Below, piece by piece: positions 6,230 through 35,354 of a stretch of 64,000 bases of DNA (the stretch's first letter is position 1; the number at the start of each line of letters is the position of its first letter). The notes beneath the pieces are model-generated. The model was not told the DNA's origin, did no database searches, and was given only the letters and a program-made list of their open reading frames with translations. A program made the position numbers and the translations under genes. The stretch is from an uncultured Methanosarcinales archaeon (GTDB taxonomy: Archaea; Nanobdellota; Nanobdellia; Woesearchaeales; UBA9642). Where the stretch lies: assembly GCA_964591655.1 (NCBI GenBank), contig CAZQDS010000001.1:7232-71231 (forward strand), read 5' to 3'.

Positions 6230-7117
6230 TTATTTTTGTTCTTTCTCAATCAAATACAACAGCTCGTTCTCTATAAGTATTTTCTCATATTTCCATTGAA
6301 GTTTCTCGAGCAATTTCTCAAGCCATACTCGACGATATTCTTTTATCTCGCGCACTCCAGAAAGCGATAATGTGGGGAAAGTGACTGCGATCAATTTGGT
6401 GTCGAGCGACTTGAATAATTTTTCTGTGATGTTCCTTTCTACACGCTCCAGGCCATCCAGTGTCTTGAATATGAAACACACATCACATTTTATTTTAGAT
6501 AGTTTCTTCAGGCTCTCTTTCTCCACTAAATCGAGAGGAAAAACTTCGTTGTCAATTCTTGTCTTAGAAAAATATTCTTTCAAGAACTTGCAGTCCTCTG
6601 AAGAGATGTCTGATGCGTAGTATTTCTTTATCTTGTCCCTGACGAATATGTTCGCGATCGGATTGAGGCCGCATGCGAGATCAAGAATGACGGCTTTTCC
6701 TTTCACATTCTCAAATATTCTCTCATACAATTCCTTATAATGGCCGAGTCGTTCATTTGTAGATTTGTGTAATTTCAACAATTCTATGTGTGTATCAATA
6801 TCGTTTTCGTCGATTAATTTTTTTAGTATCTTGTTCTTCTTCTCATACTCTTTCAATATGAACGCGCCATACACTTTCCGAAGCTCTGCACGGACATTCT
6901 TTATCAGGAAATCATGCTCCTTGCTCTTCGTGAATTGCTTATAATTCTTGCTCTTCGATAATTTTTCAAGTATCTTTTCCTTATACTGATAATTGCTGAT
7001 GTCAGAGAAGAACTCTCTTAATTTTCTCGCGACAAAATCCTCATCTAAGGCCCGCAACTCCTTCTTATCTTTAACATCGCTTACAATATCTTCAAAGAAA
7101 GCCATTTCTTCCATATC
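6230..7117 (-). CDS. FmrO/Rmt-ArmA-family 16S rRNA (guanine-N7) methyltransferase homologue
   Basis: 'AVILDLACGLNPIANIF...YASDIS' and 'LIAVTFPTLSLSGV' closely mirror RmtB/ArmA motifs ('VLDIACGLNPLAL', 'AVSFPTRSLGG'). The ORF track extends to 7183, but the likely start is the Met (MEEMAFF) whose ATG overlaps the Pelota stop. Confidence 0.5.
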   Translation of the reverse strand, partial: DMEEMAFFEDIVSDVKDKKELRALDEDFVARKLREFFSDISNYQYKEKILEKLSKSKNYKQFTKSKEHDFLIKNVRAELRKVYGAFILKEYEKKNKILKKLIDENDIDTHIELLKLHKSTNERLGHYKELYERIFENVKGKAVILDLACGLNPIANIFVRDKIKKYYASDISSEDCKFLKEYFSKTRIDNEVFPLDLVEKESLKKLSKIKCDVCFIFKTLDGLERVERNITEKLFKSLDTKLIAVTFPTLSLSGVREIKEYRRVWLEKLLEKLQWKYEKILIENELLYLIEKEQK

Positions 7118-8162
7118 AATAATTCTCCTTCCAGCGTAAAAGACAGGCAATCCCCGATAGTCCGTCAAGCTTCCTTGCCGCATCTTCTGAACTTATTATC
7201 CTTATCTCCGCATTCAATGTTTCTGCCTGTTCCATCATTGAATCTATCTGCCCATAGGACTTTTCTGAACGCATCTTCCTTATAAGGTTCTCCGATATAA
7301 GCAGCACCGAGATGTTCCCTGAATCTATCTTAGACTTCACATCAGCAATCCCGTATGCCGCATTCTCCTTGCTTATTGCGCCGAGCAATTCCTCTATCAA
7401 TGTTGTCTCTCTCGAAGATTGATCCTTTTCAAGCACCGTCTTAAGCTCGGGCCTCTTGAGTATCTCGTTTATCGTGCTTCCATCTATGCTGGAACATGAC
7501 GCGAGCGTAATCTTCTTTCTCAGCACTTCATCATCCAATTCCTTCAAAAGATACTCTTTCCAGAATGCAGGGCTCGCCAATACTATGCTGTTGAAAAGGT
7601 ATTTGTTATCGTAATCTTTCATTTTAGTTATTATCTCTTTGTAGAAGCTTGTCTTTTTCTCATCTGACTGCTCTTTCTTTGCGACATCGCCTTTTATCTC
7701 AAGGAGTATATCATAGCCATTATTCTTCAATAAGGCAAATATTGCCTCTTCCCTATCAAATGCGACAACTAGGACATGGAATGTCGTCTGTTTTGTCCCG
7801 TCATCAAGTTTTTTCAGGACATATTTTGTCCAATGGTCCTTCTCTATGCTTATGACTGTGCCTTCTTCTATGCCGAACGTGTGATACTCGCCCCTAGGGA
7901 CGTCTTCGGGTCCTTCAATTATCGGACCGGACACCCTCAACATCTCTTCGAAAGAAATCTTTTCGACCTTTATCTTCAAAAACACATTTATCCGCGATAT
8001 CTTTGATTTCTCATCAGCGCCACCCATCTTGATCTTCCTTTCAGTCATTCCACCAACTATATCTGATGGCTCTATTATCCCCTCTAAATACCACAGGTCG
8101 TCAGGGGCCTCTACCCTTATTTTTATCATCCCGTGTTTCAGGTCTTTTTGCAGCATCTTCAT
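7116..8162 (-). CDS. pelA: Pelota (Dom34) mRNA surveillance / ribosome rescue factor
   Basis: N-terminus 'MKMLQKDLKHGMIKIRVEAPDDLWYLEGIIEPSDIVGGMTERKIK' and an aRF1-like central/C-terminal domain; 348 aa. Confidence 0.75.
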   Translation of the reverse strand: MKMLQKDLKHGMIKIRVEAPDDLWYLEGIIEPSDIVGGMTERKIKMGGADEKSKISRINVFLKIKVEKISFEEMLRVSGPIIEGPEDVPRGEYHTFGIEEGTVISIEKDHWTKYVLKKLDDGTKQTTFHVLVVAFDREEAIFALLKNNGYDILLEIKGDVAKKEQSDEKKTSFYKEIITKMKDYDNKYLFNSIVLASPAFWKEYLLKELDDEVLRKKITLASCSSIDGSTINEILKRPELKTVLEKDQSSRETTLIEELLGAISKENAAYGIADVKSKIDSGNISVLLISENLIRKMRSEKSYGQIDSMMEQAETLNAEIRIISSEDAARKLDGLSGIACLLRWKENY

Positions 8163-8319
8163 ACAGCAATAGAATGAGACCCGTTATTTAAATTTAATTG
8201 TGATACATGACAATACGTAGCGCCATATATTGTGCTCAGGCAAGCACACAGATATATTGAGAATATAGTAAGATTTATAAACCGCAACAACGAAGAATTT
8301 ACATTAATTAACGACAAAG

Positions 8320-10002
8320 GTGAGCGTGATGCGTAAAGGACAATCTTCAAGCAGCGCAGCTGCATTTATCGCAATAATGACTGTGATAATCATTCTATAC
8401 ATATTATTCCTGCCTCCAGACATCAGGGAAGATCTTCTGTCTGACGGAAGTTCAGGTGGTGGAGGAAGCGGCGGCGGAGGCACAGGCTCAGGCACAACAA
8501 ATGTGTTGTTGAGGGAGACTGTAGGAAAAGTCTCATACCTCAAGGATACAGAAAAATATTATGACATACCCACCGTACGTGTCTATGCACCGACTTCTGG
8601 ACAGTTATTGAAAGGCGTCCCTTCGATTTTCATAAAGAATGCGTTGTTTGACAAGACACAATCGACATATAATATGAATTTTGATATAGACAAAAAATCT
8701 ACGACCAATATAATGTTGAGCTTCAACGTTAAAAACCATTACGGCCCATTATCGATATCATTGAATGATAGGGAGATATTCAATGGTGAAGTCGATGGCA
8801 ATAAGTTCTTAAGGATATCCGATTCAGACATTTTCGGGACTAATGAATTGAAACTCAGCGTCCCTAATCCGGGAGTGGTATTCTGGAAATCGAGCACGTA
8901 CAGCATAGAAAATCTTCAGATAACGGGTGATGTGACCGACTACAGCAGCAGCGTATCTTCACAGAGGTTCACTTTGACACAGACAGAAAAAGATAACCTA
9001 GAATCCGTGACCCTCTATTTCAGGCCGGTATGCACTATATCAGAAGTCGGGCCATTAGAGATACAATTGAACAAGAGGGTAATATTTGACTCTGTTGCAG
9101 ATTGTGGAACAAGAAGTTTTGCATCGCTGGACATAAACGAGATTGATGCAGGTTCAAATGAACTGAAGTTCAGCGTGGAGAAGGGATCATACCTATTGGA
9201 CAATCTTGCTGTAAAAGTGGATCTAGAGAAGCCCACATACAAGACATATTTCTTTGACATAGATGATGAATTCTTCATCAAGGACCCTGAACAGGCGAGA
9301 TGCGGCGATTATGACGATATCTGCCCGTCAGGATGCTCAGACATAAAGGATGCAGACTGCTGTTTCAGGCATAACGGGAATTGGTGCGCACTTCCGACAA
9401 GAAATGCAAACGACAGATGCGTATATTATGTCGATCCAGGTGATTGCGACCTTTGTCCGACAGGCTACTATGATGATTCATTCGACGTCCCAGACACCTG
9501 TGAAGAGAGGTGTGGAGACAATGATGACGGCATATGTCCTGAAGACTGCCCGAGCCCGTCAAGCGATTATGACGCAGATTGCTGTTATGAGGAGAACCCT
9601 GATTATTTCTTCTGTCAAGAAGTGCCTATAACAGGGTTGACGGATAAATGTAGGGCATCAGTCAGCTATACACAATGTGAATTATGCCCTTCAGGATATG
9701 AAGATGAAGACGGATCTGAGCCGGATTCCTGCGACGGCAGCATATATGAATATGAAGAGCTTGATGAATCGTTGGATACTGATTATGAAATGAGGCTTGT
9801 CGTCAGGTTCGTCAATGACGAGGACAGGAAAAGGATTGACGTAAACATAAACGGACATAAAGTGTCTATCGATACTAGGGAAATAGAATTCAAGAGGAAT
9901 ATCGATGATTACGTCAGGTCAGGAAGCAATAGCATAGAGCTTATTCCAAGAGAGGATGTAGACATCGCAGAATTACGGATTGAACTGATAAAGGTAAGCT
10001 GA
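8320..10002 (+). CDS. secreted/anchored Cys-rich repeat protein
   Basis: N-terminal TM/signal, then a Gly-rich linker (GGGGSGGGGTGSGT). The C-terminal half has two ~70-aa internal repeats with 'ICPxxC...DADCC...C(D/E)LCP(T/S)GY(Y/E)D...D(T/S)C' spacing. Confidence 0.5.
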   Translation: MSVMRKGQSSSSAAAFIAIMTVIIILYILFLPPDIREDLLSDGSSGGGGSGGGGTGSGTTNVLLRETVGKVSYLKDTEKYYDIPTVRVYAPTSGQLLKGVPSIFIKNALFDKTQSTYNMNFDIDKKSTTNIMLSFNVKNHYGPLSISLNDREIFNGEVDGNKFLRISDSDIFGTNELKLSVPNPGVVFWKSSTYSIENLQITGDVTDYSSSVSSQRFTLTQTEKDNLESVTLYFRPVCTISEVGPLEIQLNKRVIFDSVADCGTRSFASLDINEIDAGSNELKFSVEKGSYLLDNLAVKVDLEKPTYKTYFFDIDDEFFIKDPEQARCGDYDDICPSGCSDIKDADCCFRHNGNWCALPTRNANDRCVYYVDPGDCDLCPTGYYDDSFDVPDTCEERCGDNDDGICPEDCPSPSSDYDADCCYEENPDYFFCQEVPITGLTDKCRASVSYTQCELCPSGYEDEDGSEPDSCDGSIYEYEELDESLDTDYEMRLVVRFVNDEDRKRIDVNINGHKVSIDTREIEFKRNIDDYVRSGSNSIELIPREDVDIAELRIELIKVS

Positions 10003-10009
10003 TCCTAAA

Positions 10010-11974
10010 ATGAGATTTCTAGGACGATTGGTGGGAAAAACAGAGGTGGCTAAAGAGAACATTAAGGACGAGATAAATACACGTATAGATAATACGAAGC
10101 AGAATTGGAGTGATTTCAAGCAAAGGACTTCTGAAAGATATGATTCTGCAAAAGAAAAGACCCGTACATTCGCCAATAATGTCGCTCATCCGATAGATTA
10201 TTCTAAAAGGAGTTTTGAAGAAGGGCGAGCAGAGGCATTAAGGGAGCGAGAAAGAGAGCGCGAGCTCATAGAAGAGAGATTCGCCCGTGAATTAGAATCT
10301 GAGAAGAGAAAGATCCAATCAGCATCATCTAACAGGGAGAAGATGTTGGGCGCTGCAGCCATTGTCGCGCCTGAAGCAGGCCCTGCAATAGGGATGGCTG
10401 AAGAGAAGATGCATGAGAAAGATAATAAGAAGATTCAGAAAGAAGAAGAAAAATTGATGAAGAAGGAAGAAAGAGAATTGGATAAATCTAGCGGTAATGA
10501 TAAGAAATTCATGAACCGCATTGATGACTTGAGACAGGGCCCCAGTAGGGGCAGCGGATGGATGCAGAGGGGGCCAGGGATATTGTTCATACTTGCAGTT
10601 TTCGCATATTTCTTCGACTTGTTCACGGGATTCACTAGGCCGCCGAATTATGGCGTCATCCTACTCTATGGATTCATGATAATCATCGCAATGATTATGA
10701 CAAAAGTGTCGACCAATAAGTGGGTTAAAGACAGTGATTTTATGGGTTTTGTTGCGGCCATAGCATTCACTGTTGCATATCCATGGGTCATTGATGTGTT
10801 GAGGGAAAATATTCCTTATCAATTCTTGGTGGACCTGTTAGGACCGTTCCTGCTGTTCCCTCCAATGATAATGTATCTGATGTTCAAATACCCAGAGAAT
10901 AGTGCGATGCATAAGACGGCCGTATGGATAATAATTGCGCTGGCACTCTATGCTTTCTTAGTGTTATTGAATAGTCCTACGCTTCAAGGAACGACTGTTG
11001 CAGGGAAGATAACGATTACTAAACCATGGGATCTGATTAAAGACTTCGGAGGGAATGTCGTCGATGCCGCAACAGGGGCGGTGAATAATATGGAAAGGTC
11101 TTTCCAGATAGCGATAGCGAAAGCTACCGGACAAAAATATGAAGGTGAAGAAGAGGAACAGCGAGGCATCCTCATCGAGAACGTCAAAGCTGTCGAGAAG
11201 AATTATTACACGAGTTCAGACATCTATGTCCAGGGCAAGATAAAGGCGCAGAATCTTGTCGGGGAAGTGAATGTGAGGACAAGATGTTACGTCAAAAATA
11301 AGGGAAACGGGACTACGTATCCTGAGATGTTGACGATGGTGACAAACGACGAGAACATCATTGACTGCCATCTAGGGCAATTGCCGAAGGGGAATTATCA
11401 GGTGTTTGTCGCGGCAACATTCATTTTCATAACGGATGCAGACATACAGTATTATTTTGTTGATGAAAAGACACGGCCGGAACTCTATGACAAGATGAAC
11501 ATACCTGATAAAGCCATGGCCACATATACCGGAGGCCCTGTTGAAGTAGGGTTGCCTTCACTGAATCTGCCTTTAAGGCTGAGCGCTGATGGGAGCAATC
11601 CGCGCGTAGGCAATTATCCTTTCGGAGTATCTCTCACAAACAAATGGAGTCAGGGGAAGGTTAACAGGGGGATCAATTATACATTAGAGGTCCCTGACGG
11701 TTTTGAATTGAAGGAATGCAACAGGGTGCTGACTTATTCTGGCCAAAAGAGCAGCGAGAGTGGACGAAGATGGGTATATACTTTCGATACGGACGATCAG
11801 AACATAAAAGAGACATTTGATAGTGTGACATGCAGGATGCATGCAGTCAACCCTTCATCGATATTCAACGGAGATATAGTCGCAATGAAGACATTCAACG
11901 CCAGGGCAGTCTATGAGTATACTGTTGAAGGAAGCGTAAGCATAAATGTCCAGCAAGATTATTATGGAGGATGA
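10010..11974 (+). CDS. polytopic membrane protein with N-terminal charged coiled-coil domain
   Basis: About 190 aa K/E/R-rich N-terminus, about 4 hydrophobic helices (residues ~195-330), and a large C-terminal non-cytoplasmic domain. 8 bp from the upstream gene. Confidence 0.5.
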   Translation: MRFLGRLVGKTEVAKENIKDEINTRIDNTKQNWSDFKQRTSERYDSAKEKTRTFANNVAHPIDYSKRSFEEGRAEALRERERERELIEERFARELESEKRKIQSASSNREKMLGAAAIVAPEAGPAIGMAEEKMHEKDNKKIQKEEEKLMKKEERELDKSSGNDKKFMNRIDDLRQGPSRGSGWMQRGPGILFILAVFAYFFDLFTGFTRPPNYGVILLYGFMIIIAMIMTKVSTNKWVKDSDFMGFVAAIAFTVAYPWVIDVLRENIPYQFLVDLLGPFLLFPPMIMYLMFKYPENSAMHKTAVWIIIALALYAFLVLLNSPTLQGTTVAGKITITKPWDLIKDFGGNVVDAATGAVNNMERSFQIAIAKATGQKYEGEEEEQRGILIENVKAVEKNYYTSSDIYVQGKIKAQNLVGEVNVRTRCYVKNKGNGTTYPEMLTMVTNDENIIDCHLGQLPKGNYQVFVAATFIFITDADIQYYFVDEKTRPELYDKMNIPDKAMATYTGGPVEVGLPSLNLPLRLSADGSNPRVGNYPFGVSLTNKWSQGKVNRGINYTLEVPDGFELKECNRVLTYSGQKSSESGRRWVYTFDTDDQNIKETFDSVTCRMHAVNPSSIFNGDIVAMKTFNARAVYEYTVEGSVSINVQQDYYGG

Positions 11975-13369
11975 ATGAGCAAGACACATCTATTTATCGG
12001 ATTGATGATCATTCTTGTCATGGTCAGTGCGTGTGACGGACAGAAAACGACCACTAACTATCATCTGGGGACGCAAGGCATTGTGTTAGAGAAATTATCT
12101 AGCAACCCGGATATTGTTTATGAGGAAGAAACATTCGCATTCGGGATGATGCTGAAGAATCAGGGGGCTGCAGATGTCGAAGGAGGCGTCCTCATGGTGA
12201 ATTTCGATGATTTCTTCCTGGAATTAGACGATTATCAATCACAGAGCGGAAAGACACAGCAAGTGACCCTAGAAGGCAAAAGCATAGAGAGCCCTATGGG
12301 AGGGGCTGATTATCTTGAATGGGTATTCAAATCAAAAACCCTTGAGGTGATCAGGACAGGTGTCGAAAGCAAAGTGAATTTCAACGTGTGCTATAATTAT
12401 AATACTGATTTGACGACAGAAGTATGTCTCGATACACGAACAAGGACTTCAGACCAGAGGAGCTATGCCTGCAAAAGCAAGGACTACTCTAGCAATTCCG
12501 GGCAGGGGGCGCCCATATCCATAACAAAAATAGAGCCGGAGATGATGCTCGTAGGCAACAATGTCAGGCCATTATTCAGGATATACATAAAAAATGAAGG
12601 AGAAGGATATACTTTGAGCCCGGAAAAAAATCTCTGCACGAACCCTACAAAGAATGCCTCTGAACTTAACAAATTGAAAGTCAGTGCATGGATATCCGAC
12701 GATATGCCATTAGAATGCAACCCTGAAGAAGTGCGATTGGTGGACGGGGAGACTATCGCGAGATGTTATGTTGAAGATGGGGACTTGGAGGAATTCGGCA
12801 GGGAGACCGTCAATTATCTGACCATATTGCGTGTATTATTAGAATACGATTATGTGGATTCAGAAGTCATCAATCTCAAGATAAACAGGATCAATGAGAT
12901 AGACATAAAGAGTCCGAGTGTTTGCGGATATTACGAGATGCAACAGGGTGACCGATGCATACCGTTGTGTGATTTCTGCGTCAACAATCCTAATGACGAA
13001 GCATGCAAACGAAACATGAATGCATCGATCGGATTCGATTGGAACGATGCGTCTGATTTCAGATGCGCATGCAGCAAAGAAAAATGTTTGGCATTGAATA
13101 AGGAGGGGAAATGCATATTCGGATATTGTCCAGGAAGTAGCTATTGTTGCTCTACAGATGAATGCAGAGAAAAGGCCGATGGCGCCAAGTGCGGAGACAA
13201 TAATGTGTGCATCGCGAACATATGTATGCGAGGCGTGACTCAATGTGATTATAAGTTCGGCATGCAGAATTATACTTGCAACAGCAGGCCAGACTGCATC
13301 AACACCACAATAAAGACAGGATATTGCCCTGGCGATGAGAATAATGTTTGCTGCAAAACGACAAATTAG
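11975..13369 (+). CDS. lipoprotein, paralogue family member 1, with Cys-rich C-terminal extension
   Basis: Lipobox-like 'VMVSAC'; conserved core 'VCYNYNTDLTTEVCLD...SNSGQGAPISITKIEPE'. The C-terminal ~150 aa carry more than 25 Cys. Confidence 0.5.
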   Translation: MSKTHLFIGLMIILVMVSACDGQKTTTNYHLGTQGIVLEKLSSNPDIVYEEETFAFGMMLKNQGAADVEGGVLMVNFDDFFLELDDYQSQSGKTQQVTLEGKSIESPMGGADYLEWVFKSKTLEVIRTGVESKVNFNVCYNYNTDLTTEVCLDTRTRTSDQRSYACKSKDYSSNSGQGAPISITKIEPEMMLVGNNVRPLFRIYIKNEGEGYTLSPEKNLCTNPTKNASELNKLKVSAWISDDMPLECNPEEVRLVDGETIARCYVEDGDLEEFGRETVNYLTILRVLLEYDYVDSEVINLKINRINEIDIKSPSVCGYYEMQQGDRCIPLCDFCVNNPNDEACKRNMNASIGFDWNDASDFRCACSKEKCLALNKEGKCIFGYCPGSSYCCSTDECREKADGAKCGDNNVCIANICMRGVTQCDYKFGMQNYTCNSRPDCINTTIKTGYCPGDENNVCCKTTN

Positions 13370-13444
13370 ACGAAAAATATGCTTGAATACGCTAAACAAG
13401 ATTGATTTAAAAACAAAATCTTTATATACTAAAAACGTAAGGAA

Positions 13445-14671
13445 TTGATAAATATGTTTTTTATGAATAAGAGATGGGCTTTCGTATTGATGATTATAGC
13501 TGTATTAGTAATTTCTGGATGCGGCGTAGGTCCTAATCGGGGAACTAGTTATCAAAAAAAGTATTATCAAGGATATGATAGCCTGGACATAAAATTCTTG
13601 GATGAGAGCCCTCCGACAAGATTCTATTATGATTCTGAAGGGATAGACAATGAGATCCCTGTTGTCGTGGAAGTACGGAATAAGGGCGCATCAGATGCGT
13701 ATGGCGCAATATATATTCATGGATATGACCCTAAAATAGTGGAGGTTGCTGGTGGAGGGATACCTGGCCAGGGAAATATTAATTGGAACCCTGGGAGCGG
13801 AGTCCTTAACATCGGCGGCATATATATCGGACTTCCTGGCGGAGGAAACTATGGACAAGGTAATATCGGATTCATCTCTCCGAACGGAAATTATTATGGT
13901 GCGTCAGTATTTACTCAAAACAACAATTTTGTAGGGCTTAATTTGAATATAAATCTAAATAGCAACAGGATAGGTGCAAGGCTTGCAGATCCGGTATGGG
14001 GTGCGATGCAAGGGACATATGGATGGAATGCGCCTATCGCTTTAGAGGGAGACACTCCTGAAAGCCCTGGTGGAGGGATGGAAGTCTATGAATTCCCATC
14101 ATACATTTATTATCTTCCGGAATCGCTGGACCAGTTCAGGCAACCAATAATGGTCACCGCGTGTTATAGTTATGTCACTAGGGCGACAACGATGGTGTGT
14201 ATCGACCCTAAACCTAATAGCAATTCTAAAAAAGCATGCATCGCAAGAGATGTCAGCCATTCAGGAGGACAGGGCGCGCCGGTGGCAGTGACACGTGTAG
14301 AGCAGCAGGCAAGCTCTGGAAAAGTCGTATTTACAATAAGTGTCAAGCACAGTAAAAAGAATAGTCTTGATGAATTGTTCGACATTACACAATTATTCTA
14401 CAAGTGCAATCCGCATGCGGGAGCGATAGTCAAGCCTTCTGATAAGAATGTAGTGGACATATTATACGTAGAACTATCGGGAGAGGACATAACGATGAGC
14501 TGTTCTGGCGGCGGAAAGATAAGGCTAGATACGGCAGGTAATGGCCAATTCACATGTACTGCTTACATGAACCAGATGTCTGAGTCAGCATATGAAGCGC
14601 CCTTGCTTGTGGAGCTAGGATACGGTTATGGGAAAAATATTTATAAAGAGATAACTATTAAGAAGATATAA
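13445..14671 (+). CDS. lipoprotein, paralogue family member 2
   Basis: Lipobox 'VISGC'; core 'ACYSYVTRATTMVCID...HSGGQGAPVAVTRVEQQ'. Confidence 0.5.
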   Translation: MINMFFMNKRWAFVLMIIAVLVISGCGVGPNRGTSYQKKYYQGYDSLDIKFLDESPPTRFYYDSEGIDNEIPVVVEVRNKGASDAYGAIYIHGYDPKIVEVAGGGIPGQGNINWNPGSGVLNIGGIYIGLPGGGNYGQGNIGFISPNGNYYGASVFTQNNNFVGLNLNINLNSNRIGARLADPVWGAMQGTYGWNAPIALEGDTPESPGGGMEVYEFPSYIYYLPESLDQFRQPIMVTACYSYVTRATTMVCIDPKPNSNSKKACIARDVSHSGGQGAPVAVTRVEQQASSGKVVFTISVKHSKKNSLDELFDITQLFYKCNPHAGAIVKPSDKNVVDILYVELSGEDITMSCSGGGKIRLDTAGNGQFTCTAYMNQMSESAYEAPLLVELGYGYGKNIYKEITIKKI

Positions 14672-14684
14672 AGAAGGTGATCTT

Positions 14685-15674
14685 ATGAGATTAGCAAATG
14701 TATTGGCAATTTTGGCTGTTATGGCCGTTATGGTTTTGTCTGGATGTACAAACACAGACAATAGAGGCGGGAAAGCATTTATCGGCGGAACAGAAGGTTT
14801 AAGGACTTCATTTCTTGGCGGAAACCCTCCTGACGAGATATTCGATGGCGGACAATCGACTTTCGCAATCGTCGTGAAACTTGAGAATGTCGGTGAAGAT
14901 GACATGGCCGCTAATGAAGGATATGTGAAGATAAACGGTCTCGATCCTGGAACATATGGCATGGGCAATCCTAAAAAGATGATTGATGTGGCCATTCCTG
15001 GCGCAAAGAAGAATTTTGACGGTTCAGTCCTTAATGGAGGCATTGCGACTGTAGAATTCGGAGACTTATCATACGAGCCGGTAATACAAGGAAATCTTCA
15101 ACAGACAGTCTGGGCAGATATCTGTTACAAATATACTACGAGGACAACAACACAATTATGTATAAAGAAGGATCCACAATTATTGCTTGGAGACAAGAAG
15201 ATATGTGATGTTGAGGGCGAGAAGTATCCACAGAATGCCGGAGCACCTATCCAGATCACTTCATTGAAGGAGAGCTTTGCAGGAAACGGTAAAGTGGGCA
15301 TAAGCATGATCCTCAGCCACATGGGCACAGGAGATGCATTCTTCGATCCTAGAGTTAGTTTGAATGATAATGCATGTAATGATGTAGAGTCAAACACTAA
15401 CAGGGGAAGAGTACATGTAAAAGTTTTGCCTGTAAGGATTGGCGGCGCACAGATAACGCCAGTATGTACTGGATTGTCTGAGCCTTCAGGAACTAACGAG
15501 GGATATATCAGGTTATACAAGGACGGTTCTGGAAGAGAGCAGTTCAGCCTGTATTGTACAGTCGATGCATCATCAACAGACAGCATCTTTGAAGTCCCTA
15601 TTGAAGTAGAGACAGACTATCTATACTTGCAGCACTTAGAGAAAGAGATAACTATAAGGCACGTAATTGGCTGA
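14685..15674 (+). CDS. lipoprotein, paralogue family member 3
   Basis: Lipobox 'VLSGC'; core 'ICYKYTTRTTTQLCIK...QNAGAPIQITSLKES'. Confidence 0.5.
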   Translation: MRLANVLAILAVMAVMVLSGCTNTDNRGGKAFIGGTEGLRTSFLGGNPPDEIFDGGQSTFAIVVKLENVGEDDMAANEGYVKINGLDPGTYGMGNPKKMIDVAIPGAKKNFDGSVLNGGIATVEFGDLSYEPVIQGNLQQTVWADICYKYTTRTTTQLCIKKDPQLLLGDKKICDVEGEKYPQNAGAPIQITSLKESFAGNGKVGISMILSHMGTGDAFFDPRVSLNDNACNDVESNTNRGRVHVKVLPVRIGGAQITPVCTGLSEPSGTNEGYIRLYKDGSGREQFSLYCTVDASSTDSIFEVPIEVETDYLYLQHLEKEITIRHVIG

Positions 15675-15711: not shown

Positions 15712-16335
15712 GTGAACAAAATGTGGCTACACAAACATGGTTGGAAGTATTATCATTCTGGTTTTGAAGAAGCATATTCTTTGTTGCAGAAATTCAGTCA
15801 GAATTTCGATAATCCTCAAGGCAGTCAAGACACAGATATTATAAAAAGCGTTGTTGCTCGAATGAAAAAACTGAATAAAGAGCTTCTAGAACATACCACG
15901 AACATAGCGCAAGAAATTCGGAAAGAGGATAATTTACTGAAGAAGATTGAGAATAATATATATGAGGTCCATCTCGTCAATAAGATTAAGAACAAGCAAC
16001 CTCTGCAAAGCTACGAGAACGAGCTCTCAAACGAATTCAAAATTATAGAAACGCTTTATTTACAATTGGAGAAAGACTGCGCAAATTCTTTAGCAATCTG
16101 TGATAAGACCAAGATTAATAAGGAATGGAATAGGGAATTGCAGGGTGAGGCCGCCACAATAATTAGCAGGCTCAAAAGCATAGAGAGCGCATCATTGAAA
16201 CTGGCAGAATACTTGAAAAAAGTGCTCCCGCAGCTTGATGAATATAAGGAATGGATCAAGAAACAGGAAGAAGGGACTGAATGGATGGAAAACTGTGTCA
16301 GGAGCTGGGTAAGAACTGCTGAAGACACAAAATAA
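15712..16335 (+). CDS. coiled-coil hypothetical protein
   Basis: 207 aa, heptad-rich, no TM segment; last gene of the same-strand block. Confidence 0.4.
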   Translation: MNKMWLHKHGWKYYHSGFEEAYSLLQKFSQNFDNPQGSQDTDIIKSVVARMKKLNKELLEHTTNIAQEIRKEDNLLKKIENNIYEVHLVNKIKNKQPLQSYENELSNEFKIIETLYLQLEKDCANSLAICDKTKINKEWNRELQGEAATIISRLKSIESASLKLAEYLKKVLPQLDEYKEWIKKQEEGTEWMENCVRSWVRTAEDTK

Positions 16336-16351: not shown

Positions 16352-17308
16352 TTATCTAGAAACTGTCAATATGAATCTTGCTATAAGGCTCTCTAATTGC
16401 AGGAATTCATCGCTTCCTTCTACCATCCTGAATTCTATCTCTGCACAGTCTTTCATCATCTCTAGACGTTTTTCTGGGGTGATGTTCAGTTTCCATACTT
16501 CCTTATGCAATTGCTTTATTATGTCGATGCCTGATAATCCGTAATTGAGCATTGTGTCTAATAGTTTTGATTTGGCCTTTTCGAAGTCTTTCTTTATCAC
16601 ATGGTCGAGTATCTGGCTTATCTCTTTCGGCCTGGCGAATCCTGCAACCTCAAACACGACGGCCTCAGTTATCTTATTGCTCAATACTGCGCATGCCTGC
16701 ATTATGTTCTCGAGCTTTCTCACATCGCCTTCTGAAACTTCAACAAGTGCGTCTTTTCCGCCTGCATCTATCGATAATTTCTCTCTTGTGGCGATTGTCT
16801 CTATTATCTCGAATATCTCCTCTTTTGATAATGGCTTGAACCTGAATACTGCGCATCTTGATTGTATCGGCTCTATGATTTTTGATGAGTAATTGCAGCT
16901 GAGTATGAATCTGCATGTCTGTGAATAGTTCTCCATTGTCCTCCTTAATGCCTGCTGTGCCTCTCTCGTCAATGCATCGCATTCATCTAGGTATATTATC
17001 TTGAACGGCACATCTCCAATGGATTTTGTCCTTGCGAATTCTTTTACTTTGACTCTTATTACATCTATTCCCCTTTCATCTGATGCGTTCAATTCTAAGA
17101 AGTTTTCATGCCAAGAATCTCCATATAATTGCTTAACCACAACTAATGCGAGCGTGGTCTTCCCTACGCCTGCAGGCCCTGCAAAGAGTACATGAGGCAT
17201 ATTCTTCTGGTCGACAAACCCCTTTATCCTCTTGACAATCTCTTTCTGCCCTTTCACTTCCTTAAACGTATCTGGCCTGTACTTTTCTGTCCATAATGAA
17301 TATTCCAT
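16352..17308 (-). CDS. rfcS: replication factor C small subunit
   Basis: 'WTEKYRPDTFKEVKGQKEIV...LFAGPAGVGKTT' (RFC box II/III, Walker A), 'YLDECDAL' (DEAD-like), SRC motif region; 318 aa with no intein. Confidence 0.9.
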   Translation of the reverse strand: MEYSLWTEKYRPDTFKEVKGQKEIVKRIKGFVDQKNMPHVLFAGPAGVGKTTLALVVVKQLYGDSWHENFLELNASDERGIDVIRVKVKEFARTKSIGDVPFKIIYLDECDALTREAQQALRRTMENYSQTCRFILSCNYSSKIIEPIQSRCAVFRFKPLSKEEIFEIIETIATREKLSIDAGGKDALVEVSEGDVRKLENIMQACAVLSNKITEAVVFEVAGFARPKEISQILDHVIKKDFEKAKSKLLDTMLNYGLSGIDIIKQLHKEVWKLNITPEKRLEMMKDCAEIEFRMVEGSDEFLQLESLIARFILTVSR

Positions 17309-17342: not shown

Positions 17343-19141
17343 TTACCTATCTCTCAGCATCGCTGTCAAGTAAGGCCATAATTCTGCTTCCGGATCAGAA
17401 TATTTTATCAATAGCACTTGGCTTCCTGAAGTGTTTGTGTACTCATAATATGCTCCGCCTATCGTCTTATTGACATATTCTATGTTGAAAGAGTTGTTCT
17501 GAGGAATATTCTGTCCTGTCATATTTAGATACATCAATGTCATCAATTCCTGAACTTGCTCATCATACTTCCTTTCTTCAACGCCATAAACTTTCAGGGT
17601 GTTATTGTTCAGCACATATAGTCTTTCATAATTTTTAGTCTGCGCAGCCAATCCTAAAGGCTCTGAAGGAGTATACCCGAATAGGTTTTGGAAGAATCCT
17701 ACTATTGCATTCCATATGTTGCTGAAGAATCCTCCTTCAATATTTAATTCTGAATCGCTCACCAGATAATAAAATGAGTCTAAATTGACATAAAGATATA
17801 GGGCGCCGTTGGTGGCACCATAATGCCCGCACTTCACAAATGTTGCTTCGGCATCATATCCGTCGCAGACACGATAACTTTCTCTCACAAACGAAGGGAC
17901 TATCAATTCTATGTCTAAAACATTTCCTGTCAAATCCGCGATATGTTTTTGGTACAATCTCCACATTATATCATCTGATCCATCTACATCTGTCGTCGGA
18001 TCTTCTGCATAGAATCCTGTGATTATCCTTTCTTCATCGCCCTCTTTTGATATCAGCACGCAACCGCCAGGGATGACTCCTGAATCTACGCCTATAAGGT
18101 TGTTGAATATTGCCCCAGTATCATCACAGAATATTATGTATGGTTTGTCTGCAGAGATGTTCTCTAAAACATTGGCTATTAGGAACGTCTTCGTCGTCCA
18201 TTCGCCGTTCATGCAATAATGGTTACCTTGATTCATCACGAAATTATTGTTTATGAACTGTCCATTCTTTATGCACGAGCTTCTCGAATTATTTAAAGAG
18301 TCGATGAATGCTTGTCTGTTTTCTGGAGTCGTTCCGAATGTGTTACTGACGAAACAATCACTGTCTCTTATGCAATATCCTGATTCTTCGAAGTTCCAAT
18401 CATACTTGACTTGTGCCTCTTCCCAATTGGCATAATTAGAATCATTCAATATGCACCTGTATCCTCTTGAAAGCCAATGCATCGTCGTATTTACATGAGT
18501 CCTATAATAAGAATTGATATCTATTATGCTCCATAGATTAGAATTATTAGAGATATACCATGGATCAGATGTCACACATTGGCTTCCATCCCAACAATAC
18601 TCTGCAGGACAACAAGCAGTAGTAAGGTTTATCGGAGGCTGCAACTGTTGTTGCGCATCAATCGGAGAGACTTCCTTGAACGATATATCATCGAATTTCG
18701 CTTCAGTACATCCGGCATCAACATGTATCCTCACACTTACGTTTTTGAAATATCCTTGTGATGCGTCTGGATCGCTGGCTGGAAGAAGAACGGTTTTTGA
18801 ACCGCTGGTAGTTAATCTGAATGGCACATCATTAAAACAACCAGTCTGTACCCAATTTGTTCTGCTTAAACAACGACCATCATTCAAATCAACCCTTACG
18901 ACACATCCTGCGGCGACAGTTATGTTCGCCCTCAAAGTATATTCTTTCCCTAACCTAATATCGAATGGATCTGAATAGATATCGATAGCTGTGCCCGAGG
19001 TCGTTGTGCCTACTAAAACCAATTCTTCATTCACAGACCATCCTGTGCTTGTTGTACGCCAGCCACTCATGTCTGCATAAGCGCTCGGCAATAAAACTAA
19101 TGAAATTAATGCAATAATCCATAATGTTGTATTCTTCATTT
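17343..19141 (-). CDS. large secreted Cys-rich protein
   Basis: Probable start at 'MKNTTLWIIALISLVLLPSAYA' (signal peptide), abutting the stop of the upstream giant gene. Many Cys ('TACCPAEYCWDGSQC'). Confidence 0.5.
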
Positions 19142-22100
19142 TAATTTCCGGTATTGTTTCCTTGTTGTGCACATACTGTTGGAGGACAATCGCCACCAAA
19201 CTTTCCATTCTTCAACAACTCAGTAGCAGGAGGAATAGATTTCAGGTGTAGTTCTGAAGGGGTCGCGGGATAATACGAGTTATCAACTATATCGTATGAT
19301 TGCCCTATTCCCGGAGTATATTGTCTCCATATTCCATTGAAGCAATAATAATCATCTCTGACTTCACATTGGTCATTTACATAAGTATTCACCAATTGTG
19401 GATAGCTTGTCTGATATGTTCCATCATAACTTACTCTTATAGAATAATATTTTCCTGATGGAACTTGACATCCAATAAAAGTGTTGTTGAAATATAATAA
19501 ATCAGAATAATTATAAGATTTTAATTCATCTAACATACTAAAAAATTTAGTGTTATCTTCATAATATCCGTGTGATTTCCAAACAGATTCTCCTTCAGGA
19601 ACACCTATTCCTGCAAAGCATCCGGCAGATTTATCCCATGTCGGAACAGAACTATCATTAAAGTATTCAGGATATTTAGTAGGGTCAGTAATATCCGTGT
19701 CATCTCCACAACAATGATGTCCTGTCCATATATATGGCCATTGTGCTTCACATGTTACGGCGTATCGCCCGTATCCTTCAAGCCATGCGTCATCACCGAT
19801 AAAGAATGTGTCTGTCGGATTGGTTATTTCTGAATCTAATTGAGGAATCCATGCAGCGAACCCTCCTGTACAATAATGGTTATCTGACCCGGCAGTGGCT
19901 TGTGTAGGGTCTATTGTTAAGTATATATTATCATATTTGAATTCTGCAATACTAGGGAATACGCTTCCATTTAAATCTACTTTTATTGTTTGTAGTATTT
20001 GCTGTTTATTTTCAGGTTTTATCCTTATCTTAATATGATGTGGAATCAATTCCTGATCTCCGTTTGTAGAATAAGTAGTTAATAAATCGTAAGGAACATC
20101 ATTTATATAAACTTTCCCTACCCTATTTTTACGATTGTATACTACGTCCATTTCTATATAATCAAAATAACTTAGGAAAAAATTCTTGTCATCAATATTT
20201 GTGAGAGAGTATCGCACAGATGTTTCAGTCGTAAACCTTTTTGCTAAATCATCTATTTTTGATATGCCTGATTTAAAACGATCATAGGATTTTATAATAT
20301 TATAATTGAGCCCTAATGAAAATATCCTGTTTTGTGTTATATCAACATATGGTGTTCCGCCAAACTGCTTAAAATTATTACAATCACCTACACAGCACTG
20401 TCCAAAATAATTATTTGACTCTGATGCAAAACAAGAGAAGGTGGCATTATTCTCGTTTTCAAAAAAAGAGAATGGGAAAAAAAGTTTGTCCATAAATACG
20501 CCGAAACAACAATATGTGTCATCATCAATCATCACATCTTGATCTGGCGGAGCACATATTAGGTTTTCTGTTTTTTCATAAGGCGTGCCTCCTGCCAGAG
20601 TACATTCATCCTCATTTGTTATTAGGGTTCCGAGCAGACATTCTTTATCTTCAGGATCTCCAAAACAGCATCTTTCTCCTTGAGGATACACTATTGCTCC
20701 GTTAACGCAAACATTACCTAAAGCGCAAGGAAGCCCTCTCCCAAAATCTTGCGCTGCACAAGATTTTCCTTCATCATAGGTAGATAAATCTGAACATAAT
20801 CTTTCATTTTGTTTACATATTTCCTTCAAAATCTCTTCTTCGCCAAATCCTCCCGCACCCAAACAAAAAGGATTGGTTGGGTATAACAAACAAAAATAAT
20901 TTTCTGTACTCGCATCAGAGAAACAGTAACATCCTTTTGCCGATTCTGGGTCTGCAAAAATATTTTTTGGTTCTCCATTCTCACAACAAGGATATTGTAT
21001 TGGCACATTATTACAATCATAGTGCGGATTTCCTGTTAATATTGTAGCTATATCACTACACTCCATGTTGTTTAAATTTCTATTAGGCGGTGCAGGGAAA
21101 GAATCATATTCTAACACGGGCAATCCTTTCAATCCAGTCGTTCCATCCGCATTACAATAATACCACTTGTCCGAATTTGATATATAATCGACTGTTTTTC
21201 CAGAAAAATTCAATGGAGTTATCAAGAAAGGTTTTTCTGGAGCAGATATCCACATCCATTTATCTTCTGTGCCACCATAAAAGTTTGTTTTATTGTTATA
21301 ACATAAATATTTATTATCAGGAGTTACATACCCATAGTCTCCGCCATTCAATGGAAAACTTATTCTAATATAATCTACCCATGATTCTTGCCCAGTATTA
21401 TGTGTGGTCACTCTCAAAATCCTTAATCGCACATCGTTGACTGTTATTGAACAAGATCTTTCAACACCCGGCGTTACTGGATGTAATATGACGCCATGCA
21501 TTCTGCCCGGATCGCCCACTACTCTAAGAGGGTCGCATCCCTCAACAGTGATGTCAGCGTTATTAATGAAAAATCCTGTTCCAGTATCATCCATAAAATA
21601 AACACGTAAGGTCGCGCCTGATTTTGAAGGGTCGTCATTTATCGTGAAAGTCGTCTTTTGATTATTATAAGAATAAGAAATATCTTTCATGGCACCACTA
21701 TTCGCGGTGATTAATTTCAAAAAGCCATCTTCAATAGTTGGAGAAGGATAGCCCGGTTGTGGTTGCCAACCATTACTATTATCATTGAAAGGTTCGAAAA
21801 ACAATTCGTCTTCGCTAAAGTCATCTCCGCAACAACCATCGGCACCATCATTTGCAGAAGGATTATACCAGGGCTCCATCTCTATAAGCGGTTTTATTGA
21901 GCAATTGACTCCTCCACTCGTACAATCTTCATCATCTGTGTCTGTTTTTCCATCAAAATCATTATCATATTCATCGTTACATCTTGTTTCCTTATCATAT
22001 TCGCAAACACCTATCTTGCCATTGAAATCAAGTGGTCCTGTACGGGTTTTACAATCTTCATCAAAGCAATCGACATTTGGTTCTCCGAAATTAGGATAAC

Positions 22101-22920
22101 TGTCATTTCTAGCTAAATATCCTCTTGTAGTAAAATACTTCGTATGATCATACCATGAAACATTTACACCATCATCGGCATAAGTCCAATCGACATCATT
22201 GTCACGAAAATCATTACAGATAGTCTCGGTTTCTGTAATATAAGAATTCCATACAGAAGTGTATCTACTAGGAGGCATTACTGCGGCAAACGGATAATGA
22301 TTTCTAACATCATTGCCGCTCGCATCTACAAGTCGTACACGCATGAAATCCTTGCCGCCGCTTTCATGATAAAGAATAACTATCTTATTCCAGCCGCGCG
22401 TAACAGGGATGGCGGCGCTACTCCAGCCCCCTCCAGAGGTAATTGTGAAAGTGTGGGTATATGTTTGAGTTTCTGTTGTACCGACAAGCTCAAAGACTGC
22501 GAGTGTAAATGTATCATCAACACGATAGTTTATATAAAAATCCTTGTTAGAGGCAGAATACACAACGAAATCTGCTCTGGCATAATACGGACCGGTACAA
22601 TCGCCATCATCATCAAAATCTTCTGCGCCCTGATCAGCCATACAAAATCCAGCAAAATAATTTTCGTCCCACCCACGATCACCAGAATCAGAAGCAAAAA
22701 TTTTACCTAATACGGGCTCTCCACGATTAGTCCAATCTGATGGGAAACTCGGGCAAGAAAAATCACAAGTATGATATAAAAACTGATGCTCTCCATATGG
22801 ATAATTATCCCAGAATGAATCATTATAGAAAACCGGATCAAATTCTGCTCTTACACTAACCGATAATAATACGAATAGAACAGATATCAATAACCCTTTC
22901 CAGATTAGTTTCATAAACAC
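19141..22920 (-). CDS. giant secreted Cys-rich protein (1259 aa) with thrombospondin-type-3-like Ca-binding motif
   Basis: Signal peptide 'MFMKLIWKGLLISVLFVLLSVSVRA'; 'CNDEYDNDFDGKTDTDDEDC' (DxDxDGxxDxDDxDC); repeated 'CCGDD' motifs; more than 80 Cys. Confidence 0.55.
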   Translation of the reverse strand: MFMKLIWKGLLISVLFVLLSVSVRAEFDPVFYNDSFWDNYPYGEHQFLYHTCDFSCPSFPSDWTNRGEPVLGKIFASDSGDRGWDENYFAGFCMADQGAEDFDDDGDCTGPYYARADFVVYSASNKDFYINYRVDDTFTLAVFELVGTTETQTYTHTFTITSGGGWSSAAIPVTRGWNKIVILYHESGGKDFMRVRLVDASGNDVRNHYPFAAVMPPSRYTSVWNSYITETETICNDFRDNDVDWTYADDGVNVSWYDHTKYFTTRGYLARNDSYPNFGEPNVDCFDEDCKTRTGPLDFNGKIGVCEYDKETRCNDEYDNDFDGKTDTDDEDCTSGGVNCSIKPLIEMEPWYNPSANDGADGCCGDDFSEDELFFEPFNDNSNGWQPQPGYPSPTIEDGFLKLITANSGAMKDISYSYNNQKTTFTINDDPSKSGATLRVYFMDDTGTGFFINNADITVEGCDPLRVVGDPGRMHGVILHPVTPGVERSCSITVNDVRLRILRVTTHNTGQESWVDYIRISFPLNGGDYGYVTPDNKYLCYNNKTNFYGGTEDKWMWISAPEKPFLITPLNFSGKTVDYISNSDKWYYCNADGTTGLKGLPVLEYDSFPAPPNRNLNNMECSDIATILTGNPHYDCNNVPIQYPCCENGEPKNIFADPESAKGCYCFSDASTENYFCLLYPTNPFCLGAGGFGEEEILKEICKQNERLCSDLSTYDEGKSCAAQDFGRGLPCALGNVCVNGAIVYPQGERCCFGDPEDKECLLGTLITNEDECTLAGGTPYEKTENLICAPPDQDVMIDDDTYCCFGVFMDKLFFPFSFFENENNATFSCFASESNNYFGQCCVGDCNNFKQFGGTPYVDITQNRIFSLGLNYNIIKSYDRFKSGISKIDDLAKRFTTETSVRYSLTNIDDKNFFLSYFDYIEMDVVYNRKNRVGKVYINDVPYDLLTTYSTNGDQELIPHHIKIRIKPENKQQILQTIKVDLNGSVFPSIAEFKYDNIYLTIDPTQATAGSDNHYCTGGFAAWIPQLDSEITNPTDTFFIGDDAWLEGYGRYAVTCEAQWPYIWTGHHCCGDDTDITDPTKYPEYFNDSSVPTWDKSAGCFAGIGVPEGESVWKSHGYYEDNTKFFSMLDELKSYNYSDLLYFNNTFIGCQVPSGKYYSIRVSYDGTYQTSYPQLVNTYVNDQCEVRDDYYCFNGIWRQYTPGIGQSYDIVDNSYYPATPSELHLKSIPPATELLKNGKFGGDCPPTVCAQQGNNTGN

Positions 22921-28593: not shown

Positions 28594-29799
28594 ATGGTTA
28601 TAAGTGATTTTTTAGAAAATTTCATAAAAAAAGAATCTCTGTTCAAGAACAAAGCAGTCCTGCAAAGCTCATATTTTCCAGAGGAAGTATTGCATAGGGA
28701 GGAACAGATAAATCAGATAGCGAAAATACTTGCGCCAGGTCTTAGGGCGGAAAGGCCATCAAATATATTCGCATACGGAAAGACCGGTACAGGGAAAACA
28801 CTCACGATACAATACACCCTAAAGGAGATAATCAAGATATCTCAGAGAGAGAACATCCCTCTGAAATATATCTATATCAACTGCAAACTGAAAAAAGTTG
28901 CAGATACAGAATACAGGCTTATAGCAGAAATAGCAAGACATCTAGGGAAGACCATTCCTCCGACAGGACTTCCTACTGATGAAGTCTACAACATATTCTA
29001 CAGGGCCATCAATCAAGAAAAGAAAGTGATAATAATAGTGCTAGATGAGATAGATCAATTGGTGAAGAAAATAGGTGATGAAGTTATATATAATCTCACG
29101 AGGATAAATACGGAGCTGAAAGAAAGCCAGCTAGCAATAATCGGCATAAGCAACGATGTAATGTTCGCTGACAATCTGGACCCGAGAGTAAAAAGCTCAC
29201 TTAGTGAAGAGGAGATAGTGTTCCCATCATATAATGCAATACAGATACAGGACATATTGAAGAAAAGGTGCAATGAGGCCGTAAAAGATGGGGTGATAGA
29301 GGACGGCGTGATAGCGAAGTGTGCAGCATACGCCGCCAGGGAGCACGGCGACGCGAGAAGGGCATTGGAGCTGATAAGGGTCGCAGTAGAGATCGCAGAA
29401 AGAAAAGGGATATCGAGCATAACATTGAAAGAGCTCGATGAGTCGGAAGAAAAGATAGAGAAAGACAGGGTCATAGATATAATAACGACCCAGCCGAAAC
29501 AATTCCAGCTCGTTCTTTATTCGATACTTATCATCGGGAACAGGAAAAAGAGCAACGACCCGATATTTACAGGAGACATATATCTGTTGTACAAGGACCT
29601 ATGCAACAAGACAAACCTTCGGCCGCTCACCCAAAGGAGGGTGTCTGATGTGATTTCAGAGTTTGACCTTTTAGGGATAATCAATGCCAAAGTAATAAGC
29701 AAGGGGAGATATGGGCGGACGAGAGAAGTGAACATAGTCACGAACGAAACCACCAACAACAAGATAATATCCTTGTTAGAAACATCATTGAACCTTTGA
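28594..29799 (+). CDS. cdc6: Orc1/Cdc6 replication initiator
   Basis: AAA+ Walker A 'FAYGKTGTGKTL', Walker B 'IIVLDEID', sensor regions and a C-terminal winged helix; 401 aa. Confidence 0.9.
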   Translation: MVISDFLENFIKKESLFKNKAVLQSSYFPEEVLHREEQINQIAKILAPGLRAERPSNIFAYGKTGTGKTLTIQYTLKEIIKISQRENIPLKYIYINCKLKKVADTEYRLIAEIARHLGKTIPPTGLPTDEVYNIFYRAINQEKKVIIIVLDEIDQLVKKIGDEVIYNLTRINTELKESQLAIIGISNDVMFADNLDPRVKSSLSEEEIVFPSYNAIQIQDILKKRCNEAVKDGVIEDGVIAKCAAYAAREHGDARRALELIRVAVEIAERKGISSITLKELDESEEKIEKDRVIDIITTQPKQFQLVLYSILIIGNRKKSNDPIFTGDIYLLYKDLCNKTNLRPLTQRRVSDVISEFDLLGIINAKVISKGRYGRTREVNIVTNETTNNKIISLLETSLNL

Positions 29800-29827
29800 T
29801 ATTCACGATCTTTATTTTTTTATAACA

Positions 29828-35289: not shown

Positions 35290-35354
35290 AATAGATATAT
35301 CGGATTTGAAATTTTAGAAAATATTTATAAAGAGTATTTGTATTGTAAAATAAT

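Follow-up and report, generated by a model that had tools for sequence, protein, structure and literature searches.

A fixed trio of paralogous lipoproteins in a syntenic five-gene cassette of Woesearchaeota and related archaea, and its possible role at the cell surface

What do three adjacent lipoprotein genes without any characterised relative do for an uncultivated archaeon, and are they engaged in diversification, as a preliminary description of this DNA had proposed? The question arises from contig CAZQDS010000001.1 (assembly GCA_964591655.1), of which a stretch of 64 kb, hereafter the window, was analysed. The three lipoprotein open reading frames (ORFs) are named here c1, c2 and c3, and the two genes upstream on the same strand g1 and g2. 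The trio turns out to be a fixed part of a five-gene cassette, one member of which, the membrane protein g2, bears peptidoglycan-cleaving domains in several other species. Tentatively, and with rather less than even confidence, the trio and g2 are interpreted as a membrane-proximal, hetero-oligomeric surface complex, which may work where the cell meets the envelopes of other cells.

The lipoprotein trio and its family

The three ORFs lie in tandem on the + strand, precisely where they had been reported, namely c1 at 11975-13369 (464 amino acids (aa)), c2 at 13445-14671 (408 aa counted from a TTG at 13445) and c3 at 14685-15674 (329 aa). The start codon of c1 abuts the stop codon of g2, and for c2 the ATG at 13454 or 13463 is a likelier start than TTG 13445, a database orthologue beginning at ATG 13454. 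Identity between the copies reaches only 21-32%, and pairwise BLASTP gives E values of 2e-14 for c1/c2, 2e-7 for c1/c3 and 1e-20 for c2/c3, the last over the full length; because these values are far beyond chance, c1, c2 and c3 are, on sequence grounds, true paralogues. Conservation is highest in c3, which consists of the module alone.

A core of the form CYxYxT..TT..C … C … GAP(I/V)x(I/V)T is common to all three. As read from the sequence, its first part is CYNYNTDLTTEVC in c1 (12389-12427, +), CYSYVTRATTMVC in c2 (14162-14200, +) and CYKYTTRTTTQLC in c3 (15123-15161, +), where it falls inside a 23-residue β-strand (residues 138-160) of the structural model, and its last part is GAPISIT (12506-12526, +), GAPVAVT (14273-14293, +) and GAPIQIT (15240-15260, +), respectively. 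The preliminary description had taken this core to be strictly conserved, which holds for its presence in every copy but not to the letter: c1 has Leu instead of Ile after the second Cys, and the supposedly identical GQGAP, found in c1 and c2, reads NAGAP in c3. Likewise, the N-proximal block that it had outlined lacks the 'FL' and 'PP' positions in c1, and the conserved Cys are not confined to the central block, six more being common to all three copies.

Regarding export, each product has a charged n-region and a hydrophobic segment within aa 1-26, and a lipobox closes the hydrophobic N-terminal helix, i.e. VSAC in c1 (Cys20; 12023-12034, +), ISGC in c2 (Cys26; 13511-13522, +) and LSGC in c3 (Cys21; 14736-14747, +), just as had been described; in the c3 model, the signal segment appears as a helix at residues 2-19. 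Of 237 family members taken from the loci presented below, more than 90% have a signal peptide that ends in a Cys within a lipobox or a near variant of it. By their sequences, c1-c3 fit the definition of lipobox lipoproteins, and the anchor Cys would be lipidated. The characterisation as a surface family can be retained for all three, with Sec-type signal peptides, lipobox Cys and predicted all-β ectoproteins throughout. A Tat-dependent lipoprotein was considered and discarded, the n-regions (MSKTH, MNKRW and MRLAN) being devoid of RR, as was a class III (pilin) protein, [KR][GAS]Q preceding the h-region in 0 of the 237 members and a Cys following it instead.

In a joint alignment of the three orthologue groups, the invariant columns (c3 numbering) comprise the lipobox Cys, G35, N68, G70, C147, Y150, C159, C174, G186, P188, C231, C261 and C291. 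All six Cys other than that of the lipobox are kept in 226 of the 237 members, and they probably form three disulfides; C147 and C231 are jointly lost in four of the exceptions, which hints that these two pair with each other.

A lipoprotein machinery has been described in DPANN archaea, including the enzyme AliA (arCOG02177), and both lipoproteins, by prediction, and AliA are reported to be prevalent there, AliA 'with some gaps' (PMC12462473). Like the AliA/AliB-dependent lipobox lipoproteins known from Haloferax volcanii (PMC12462473), c1-c3 have a Sec signal peptide ending in [LVI][AST][GA]C with a conserved anchor Cys, but they show no sequence kinship to any characterised lipoprotein, and their triple-paralogue arrangement and function have no described counterpart. 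As such, the trio would add a conserved DPANN substrate set for this recently discovered archaeal pathway.

In line with the preliminary description, searches of Pfam, NCBIfam and the PDB assigned the trio to no well-characterised family. Pfam-A, including CARDB, DUF11, Big, fn3 and S-layer domains, offered no family for c1-c3 at E ≤ 1, save a chance match of 12.5 bits in c2; scans of c1-c3, g1, g2 and their neighbours gave no meaningful match in NCBIfam and nothing above noise in Pfam; and a c3-orthologue profile found 0 matches among PDB sequences. The family is nonetheless large. The search with c3 returned 83 clusters (90% identity) of proteins that are ~320-340 aa long, their identity falling as low as 31%, and that with c2 returned 198 clusters, in which the orthologues mostly have 400-450 aa and the shorter matches span the shared core only. 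Run against 1.84 billion cluster representatives, a joint three-paralogue profile retrieved 3,631 matches (50%-identity clusters) at E ≤ 1e-3 and 1,887 proteins at E ≤ 1e-30; the best 150 of the 3,631 are nearly all 300-460 aa long and aligned over their full length. Among GTDB species representatives, relatives occur in 133 genomes, all with Woesearchaeota- or Nanoarchaeota-type labels, and the named sources of family members are Woesearchaeota, Nanoarchaeota or Nanobdellota. No relatives were found in the viral contigs of IMG/VR, and an origin from a prophage or mobile element was rejected on this absence and on the fixed chromosomal position.

The AlphaFold (AF2) model of c3, with a predicted local distance difference test (pLDDT) score of 93.2, is elongated and all-β, with long strands at residues 138-160 and 302-325. 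According to the model, the module would comprise ~290 residues in two β-sandwich halves, both spanned by two ~24-residue strands, and a tether of ~15 residues would separate it from the lipid-anchor Cys. Foldseek comparison of this model with the PDB and BFVD gave only generic tandem β-sandwich matches, with TM-scores ≤0.25. An aerolysin / ETX-MTX2 pore-forming toxin had been considered in view of the long strands and of CYxYxT..TT, a Thr-rich segment, but this idea was rejected, no aerolysin-family entry standing among the top 50 Foldseek PDB matches listed.

A syntenic cassette under purifying selection

In order to place the trio in its genomic context, 87 loci (numbered with the prefix L) were fetched, and their ORFs were called and then labelled by phmmer, jackhmmer and the family hidden Markov model; gene order was assessed only where enough flanking sequence was available, i.e. 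at about 60 of the 80 species loci. At every one of these the order is Pelota (-), g1, g2, c1-like, c2-like and c3-like (+), after which the small subunit of RFC (-) usually follows. The window conforms to it, with Pelota at 7116-8162 (-), g1, g2, c1, c2, c3, a 207-aa ORF and RFC at 16352-17308 (-), the spacers inside the cassette from g1 to c3 being 7, 0, 75 and 13 nt. On reading the sequence, TTTATAAA (8274-8281, +), which lies ~39 nt upstream of g1 and may be an archaeal TATA box, is a candidate cassette promoter, and TTTATATA (13421-13428, +) may be an internal promoter in the 75-nt spacer between c1 and c2. Full-text searches of the literature retrieved no description of the five-gene cassette; judging from the searched literature, neither the sequence family nor the cassette has been described before. 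What is familiar is the fold class, as is the notion of a surface complex made of lipoproteins.

Of note, many contigs carrying the cassette are titled 'uncultured Methanosarcinales' (among them the records of L008, L012, L014 and L018), and single ones 'Alphaproteobacteria bacterium' or 'Allocoleopsis sp.'; because the same archaeal synteny is found on those contigs, the odd titles probably reflect placeholder taxonomy or mis-binned contigs of public metagenome-assembled genomes (MAGs).

The number of family members per locus is three at 54 loci and four at 14 loci, and the trio holds the only three within the window. Each copy is, as judged from the sequences, a separate ancient orthologue line, and the trio as a whole is fixed and conserved; the three are retained in every genome, their order does not change and they are under purifying selection, for which reason they are considered non-redundant. 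Besides these, extra members are occasionally seen, namely a lone c3-like gene on another contig (L016 and L017, from the same MAG, CAVZPN01), a reverse-strand copy upstream of Pelota (L022) and a fourth tandem copy, giving c3-c3 or c2-c2 (L031-L043). Across the loci, g1 varies from 395 to 570 aa and g2 from 520 to 1125 aa.

The ancestral length of all three lipoproteins is estimated at ~305-345 aa, upon which additions are found that are paralogue-specific, lineage-conserved decorations. In the window, the Cys-rich C-terminal module attributed to c1 is indeed present (12902-13366, +; 155 aa with 22 Cys), and among 66 c1 orthologues 28 possess such a tail, of 82-584 aa and 10-15% Cys, which is never seen in c2 or c3. 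The Gly/Asn-rich segment attributed to c2 also exists (13769-14020, +; 84 aa with 18 Gly and 16 Asn), though as an internal insertion (aa 109-192) and not as a tail, and the repeats ascribed to it are not borne out, Tandem Repeats Finder showing no DNA-level tandem repeat in this segment; of 76 c2 orthologues, 32 have an insertion, always at this one site (profile column 102), and only c2 lines show it. The c3 orthologues are always bare, with neither tail nor insertion. A further Cys-rich module is inserted in g1 (9295-9738, +; 148 aa with 20 Cys) and holds two CGD(x)DD(x)CPxxC…DADCC repeats; like the c1 tail, it was added in the clade of the window, always with an even number of Cys. Scanned separately, the c1 tail and the g1 insert gave no Pfam match and no mutual similarity.

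Selection was assessed pairwise against the nearest species (L008) by the Nei-Gojobori method, the synonymous divergence (dS) of ≥1 being near or beyond saturation. For c3, identity is 92% and the nonsynonymous divergence (dN) 0.04, followed by c2 (84%, 0.10) and c1 (72%, 0.20), values to be read beside those of g1 (88%, 0.09), g2 (68%, 0.26), Pelota (85%, 0.10) and RFC (93%, 0.04, the same dN as c3); the variable neighbours, i.e. the 207-aa ORF (48%) and a 621-aa protein (54%), reach a dN of 0.40-0.41. By this comparison, purifying selection on the trio is strong and graded in the order c3 > c2 > c1, which contradicts the term 'diversifying' of the preliminary description, as do the separate orthologue line of each copy, the constant length class, the fixed order and the low dN.

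The g2 scaffold and the readings of the cassette

Directly upstream of the trio, g2 (10010-11974, +; 654 aa) encodes a polytopic membrane protein with about 5-6 transmembrane (TM) helices in aa 187-327 and an all-β ectodomain (aa ~386-648). Its AF2 model (mean pLDDT 68.9, ectodomain 75-88) shows long N-terminal helices at 3-175, membrane helices at 190-320 and the all-β ectodomain at 386-648, in which two long strands, one internal (461-485) and one C-terminal (624-648), reproduce the strand architecture of c3; confidence in the model is only medium because the homologue search, whose candidate list was filled up by low-complexity words, gave just 18 sequences. By hhalign, the 237 family members and 65 g2 ectodomains align end to end over 230 collinear columns (E 8.9e-4, score 31.5), pairing CY.Y.T with F.F.T, QGAPV with TGGPV and the terminal Y.Y with Y.Y, whereas none of 42 controls (reversed, column-shuffled and block-shuffled) scored above 24.2. 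With c3 set against 6-sequence alignments of g2 and of g1, hhalign returned nothing significant. Foldseek comparison of the g2 model with the PDB gave generic tandem β-sandwich matches only, those common to g2 and c3 being AglB, RbmA, integrin and 7akk. On balance, the lipoprotein module probably has a fourth, very old and highly diverged copy in the g2 ectodomain.

In at least five other species, hydrolase domains sit on g2 orthologues, C-terminal to the β-ectodomain. SLT (PF01464) scores above its gathering threshold at L006 (5640-8888), L026 (5702-7894; 44.9 bits), L063 (5908-8007; 34.9 bits) and L068 (5468-7888; 26.0 bits), and Peptidase_M23 (PF01551) reaches 64.7 bits at L044 (3211-6156). 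Below threshold, SLT appears in L018 and glucosaminidase in L074 and L077, and jackhmmer adds SLT-like tails in L046, L058 and L078. From these sequence matches, two firm classes of murein-cleaving domains, and possibly a third, appear to have been joined to the g2 scaffold in different lineages. The g2 of the window itself has no lytic domain. Because hydrolase domains are fused to g2, its ectodomain would be exposed within reach of peptidoglycan.

Extracellular SLT proteins of Woese- and Pacearchaeota have been read as binding or degrading bacterial walls (PMC8204110; PMC9723730; PMC12352652), the searched passages of these papers mentioning neither the cassette nor the lipoprotein trio. The SLT-bearing membrane g2 orthologues of L006, L026, L063 and L068, from the same lineages, resemble the proteins reported there (fam00969 in PMC8204110; GH23 in PMC9723730) and may be among those counted. 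On the other hand, the g2 of the window lacks SLT and a hydrolase-free g2 orthologue is present in every related genome examined, a situation in which SLT sits on a protein with hydrolase-free orthologues throughout the relatives and on which the searched passages of PMC8204110 and PMC9723730 are silent.

The presence of hydrolase domains on g2 in several species suggests that the cassette products most likely act at the envelope of another cell. In the reading favoured here, the three non-redundant lipoproteins would be exported by Sec and anchored by a lipid on the conserved Cys; up to three disulfides would stabilise them, and the short tether would keep their modules within a few nanometres of the membrane. 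They would then join the homologous g2 ectodomain, and possibly g1, in a hetero-oligomeric platform working at the envelope of another cell by docking or scaffolding, and carrying wall-cleaving enzymes in some lineages; since the g2 of the window is devoid of a lytic domain, only the scaffold or contact role would apply to this organism.

Several points weigh against such a complex. The homology between g2 and the lipoproteins is weak (hhalign probability 23%), and the fold gives no functional clue, as Foldseek matched only generic β-sandwiches. Most g2 orthologues, like that of the window, are without hydrolase domain, and the fusions could for this reason be opportunistic decorations of any exposed protein. 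Besides, conservation and the core position between Pelota and RFC fit a housekeeping envelope role equally well, and we know of no host for any member of the Woesearchaeota.

Should the surface complex exist, it might amount to more, i.e. a lineage-defining surface machine of Woesearchaeota and related Nanoarchaeota, made of four paralogous β-modules (one on g2, three lipid-anchored) and a prepilin-like protein, which would dock onto the wall of a bacterial partner and breach it in the hydrolase-bearing species; this extension is held to be possible but doubtful. Few uncultivated archaea are as widespread as Woesearchaeota and their relatives, and to our knowledge the way in which they attach to hosts is not known, so that such a machine, if real, would be the long-sought molecular interface of these episymbionts. 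Whichever reading applies, three 'hypothetical proteins' become a defined target, with a large unannotated family, a fixed trio and a syntenic cassette, one member of which, g2, repeatedly acquires peptidoglycan-cleaving domains. If the cassette is a contact apparatus, the presence or absence of a lytic domain could serve as a genomic marker for bacterial vs. archaeal partners, and its products could provide antigens for imaging and host-cell pull-down as well as a protein set for modelling of the complex.

Monoderm conjugative type IV secretion systems have VirB1-like wall hydrolases as well (PrgK, TraG and CwlT). The likeness would lie in a membrane-anchored SLT and/or M23 protein within a multi-protein envelope apparatus, but the cassette has no VirB4 or VirD4 ATPase and no homology to these systems, g2 is polytopic, and the cassette is chromosomal and syntenic, not mobile. 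More generally, its layout may be said to recall, loosely, monoderm type IV secretion wall-hydrolase modules, PilP-type lipoproteins and S-layers of immunoglobulin-like (Ig-like) domains, with the defining components of none.

Among the alternatives to a contact complex, the one that survives best, although it is considered unlikely, is an S-layer-like housekeeping lattice, in which the lipoproteins, with or without g1 and g2, would be subunits or membrane anchors of the cell wall, i.e. a hetero-oligomer of Ig-like domains tethered by an N-terminal lipid. β-sandwich units build archaeal S-layers, e.g. Haloferax csg, Sulfolobus SlaA/SlaB and Nitrosopumilus SLP, and the architecture of the trio matches such building blocks, with membrane-anchored extracytoplasmic β-sandwich modules that may form a hetero-oligomer; a p3 or p6 unit would be consistent with three or four paralogues, and the cassette, in a core position and under strong purifying selection, is present in every related genome examined. 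Yet S-layer proteins are usually large and fast-evolving, whereas the subunits here are three, small (~300 aa, in 3-4 paralogues) and very highly conserved, c3 evolving as slowly as RFC; their predicted lipid anchor is N-terminal and not C-terminal, the ~15-residue tether sets the module right at the membrane, and these proteins show no homology to those S-layer proteins and matched no S-layer family in Pfam or NCBIfam. In addition, the large variable secreted proteins of the window (621 and 1259 aa) are better candidates for an S-layer or adhesin, and a lattice leaves the hydrolase fusions of g2 unexplained. If the cassette nevertheless encodes a cell-wall lattice, this would be an unusual, multi-subunit and N-terminally lipid-anchored archaeal envelope.

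A less probable alternative, which we regard as quite unlikely, turns on g1 (8320-10002, +; 560 aa), whose product has an RKGQ motif at its N-terminus, one hydrophobic helix and a β-rich ectodomain, with no Pfam match and no similarity to the lipoprotein family by hhalign, even with deeper alignments. In 34 of 46 g1 orthologues (L001-L086), [KR][GAS]Q stands just before the single hydrophobic helix (ending LYILFLPP), and this [KR][G/A/S]Q, with Gln at +1, resembles the class III (prepilin) cleavage sites of archaea. The cassette could then serve a type IV pilus-like filament as its accessory or anchoring part, with g1 as a large prepilin-like subunit cut at [KR][G/A]↓Q, and with g2 and the three lipoproteins as a membrane-proximal base, comparable to the PilP-type β-sandwich lipoproteins of bacterial type IV pili and type II secretion systems. 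In one subclade of ~10 loci (L001-4, L013-15, L017, L020 and L024), a type IV filament cluster indeed follows c3 directly and encodes two T2SSF, a T2SSE ATPase with PilB3_C, two unknown proteins and a 917-aa VWA protein (L001:11141-20867), three of its products having classic class III signals (RKG|FTYVLIV, RKA|ILYTIDAIL and RNA|QVWTIDFIAG). The link is only suggestive, however, because RFC follows c3 elsewhere, i.e. in most species, that of the window and those closest to it among them; no T2SSE or T2SSF turned up in those window ORFs that were compared with Pfam, and the cassette encodes no ATPase. Furthermore, 5-9 polar residues separate the g1 motif from the helix, a FlaFind-type pattern fits only 7 of the 46 orthologues, and the class III motif is absent from all 237 lipoprotein family members. 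In view of this atypical polar spacer, g1 is described only as a signal-anchored, β-rich and possibly prepilin-like protein. As for PilP and GspC-HR, small β-sandwich lipoproteins bridging a membrane platform and, in one subclade, an adjacent filament cluster constitute the likeness, but there is no sequence or specific fold match, and the adjacency is limited to ~10 of 80 loci.

Still weaker is the idea of ligand capture for a transporter, in which the lipoproteins would pass a host-derived molecule (a lipid, a wall fragment or a nutrient) to the polytopic g2. An operon that combines lipoproteins with a polytopic membrane protein resembles binding-protein-dependent uptake systems in its layout, and DPANN archaea depend on scavenging (PMC8204110), but the cassette offers no ATPase and no recognisable permease family, the fold is a β-sandwich and not that of periplasmic binding proteins, and conservation of the g2 TM region from clade to clade is poor, unusually so for a transporter; altogether, this is deemed highly improbable. 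Finally, a diversifying family of variable adhesins or antigens, born from tandem duplication plus divergent tails, is scarcely credible: the low mutual identity of the copies, the c1 tails varying from 82 to 584 aa between clades and the fourth copy at 14 loci speak for it, but the divergence between copies is ancient and not ongoing, the orthologues are conserved in a fixed order, dN is low and just three members lie within the 64 kb.

Neighbouring genes and other features of the window

Two genes adjoining the cassette, namely the 207-aa coiled-coil ORF (15712-16335, +) and the 621-aa secreted-looking protein (17343-19208, -), evolve much faster than it does, with identities of 48% and 54%, respectively, vs. 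72-92% for c1-c3. Neither has a significant Pfam match, and from their sequences both would be better candidates for variable surface proteins than the trio. Further on, a 1259-aa ORF (19141-22920, -) has no Pfam match, and beside it a 735-aa protein (23053-25260, +) matches Beta_propel (PF09826) with an E value of 1e-152; both proteins are possibly extracytoplasmic.

In the rest of the window, no tRNA or Rfam RNA was detected anywhere in the 64 kb, and two neighbouring 317-aa ORFs (57062-59163) are not paralogues. Genes of replication are dense in the region 28594-41327, which encodes Cdc6/Orc1, the small and large subunits of PolD (DP1 and DP2) and MCM, and further ones are scattered, with RFC-S (16352-17308), a primase (52548-54122) and FEN1/XPG (62559-63596). 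The primase is encoded by a 524-aa ORF (52548-54122, +) matching both DNA_primase_S and DNA_primase_lrg, and it appears from these matches to be a fused PriS-PriL primase.

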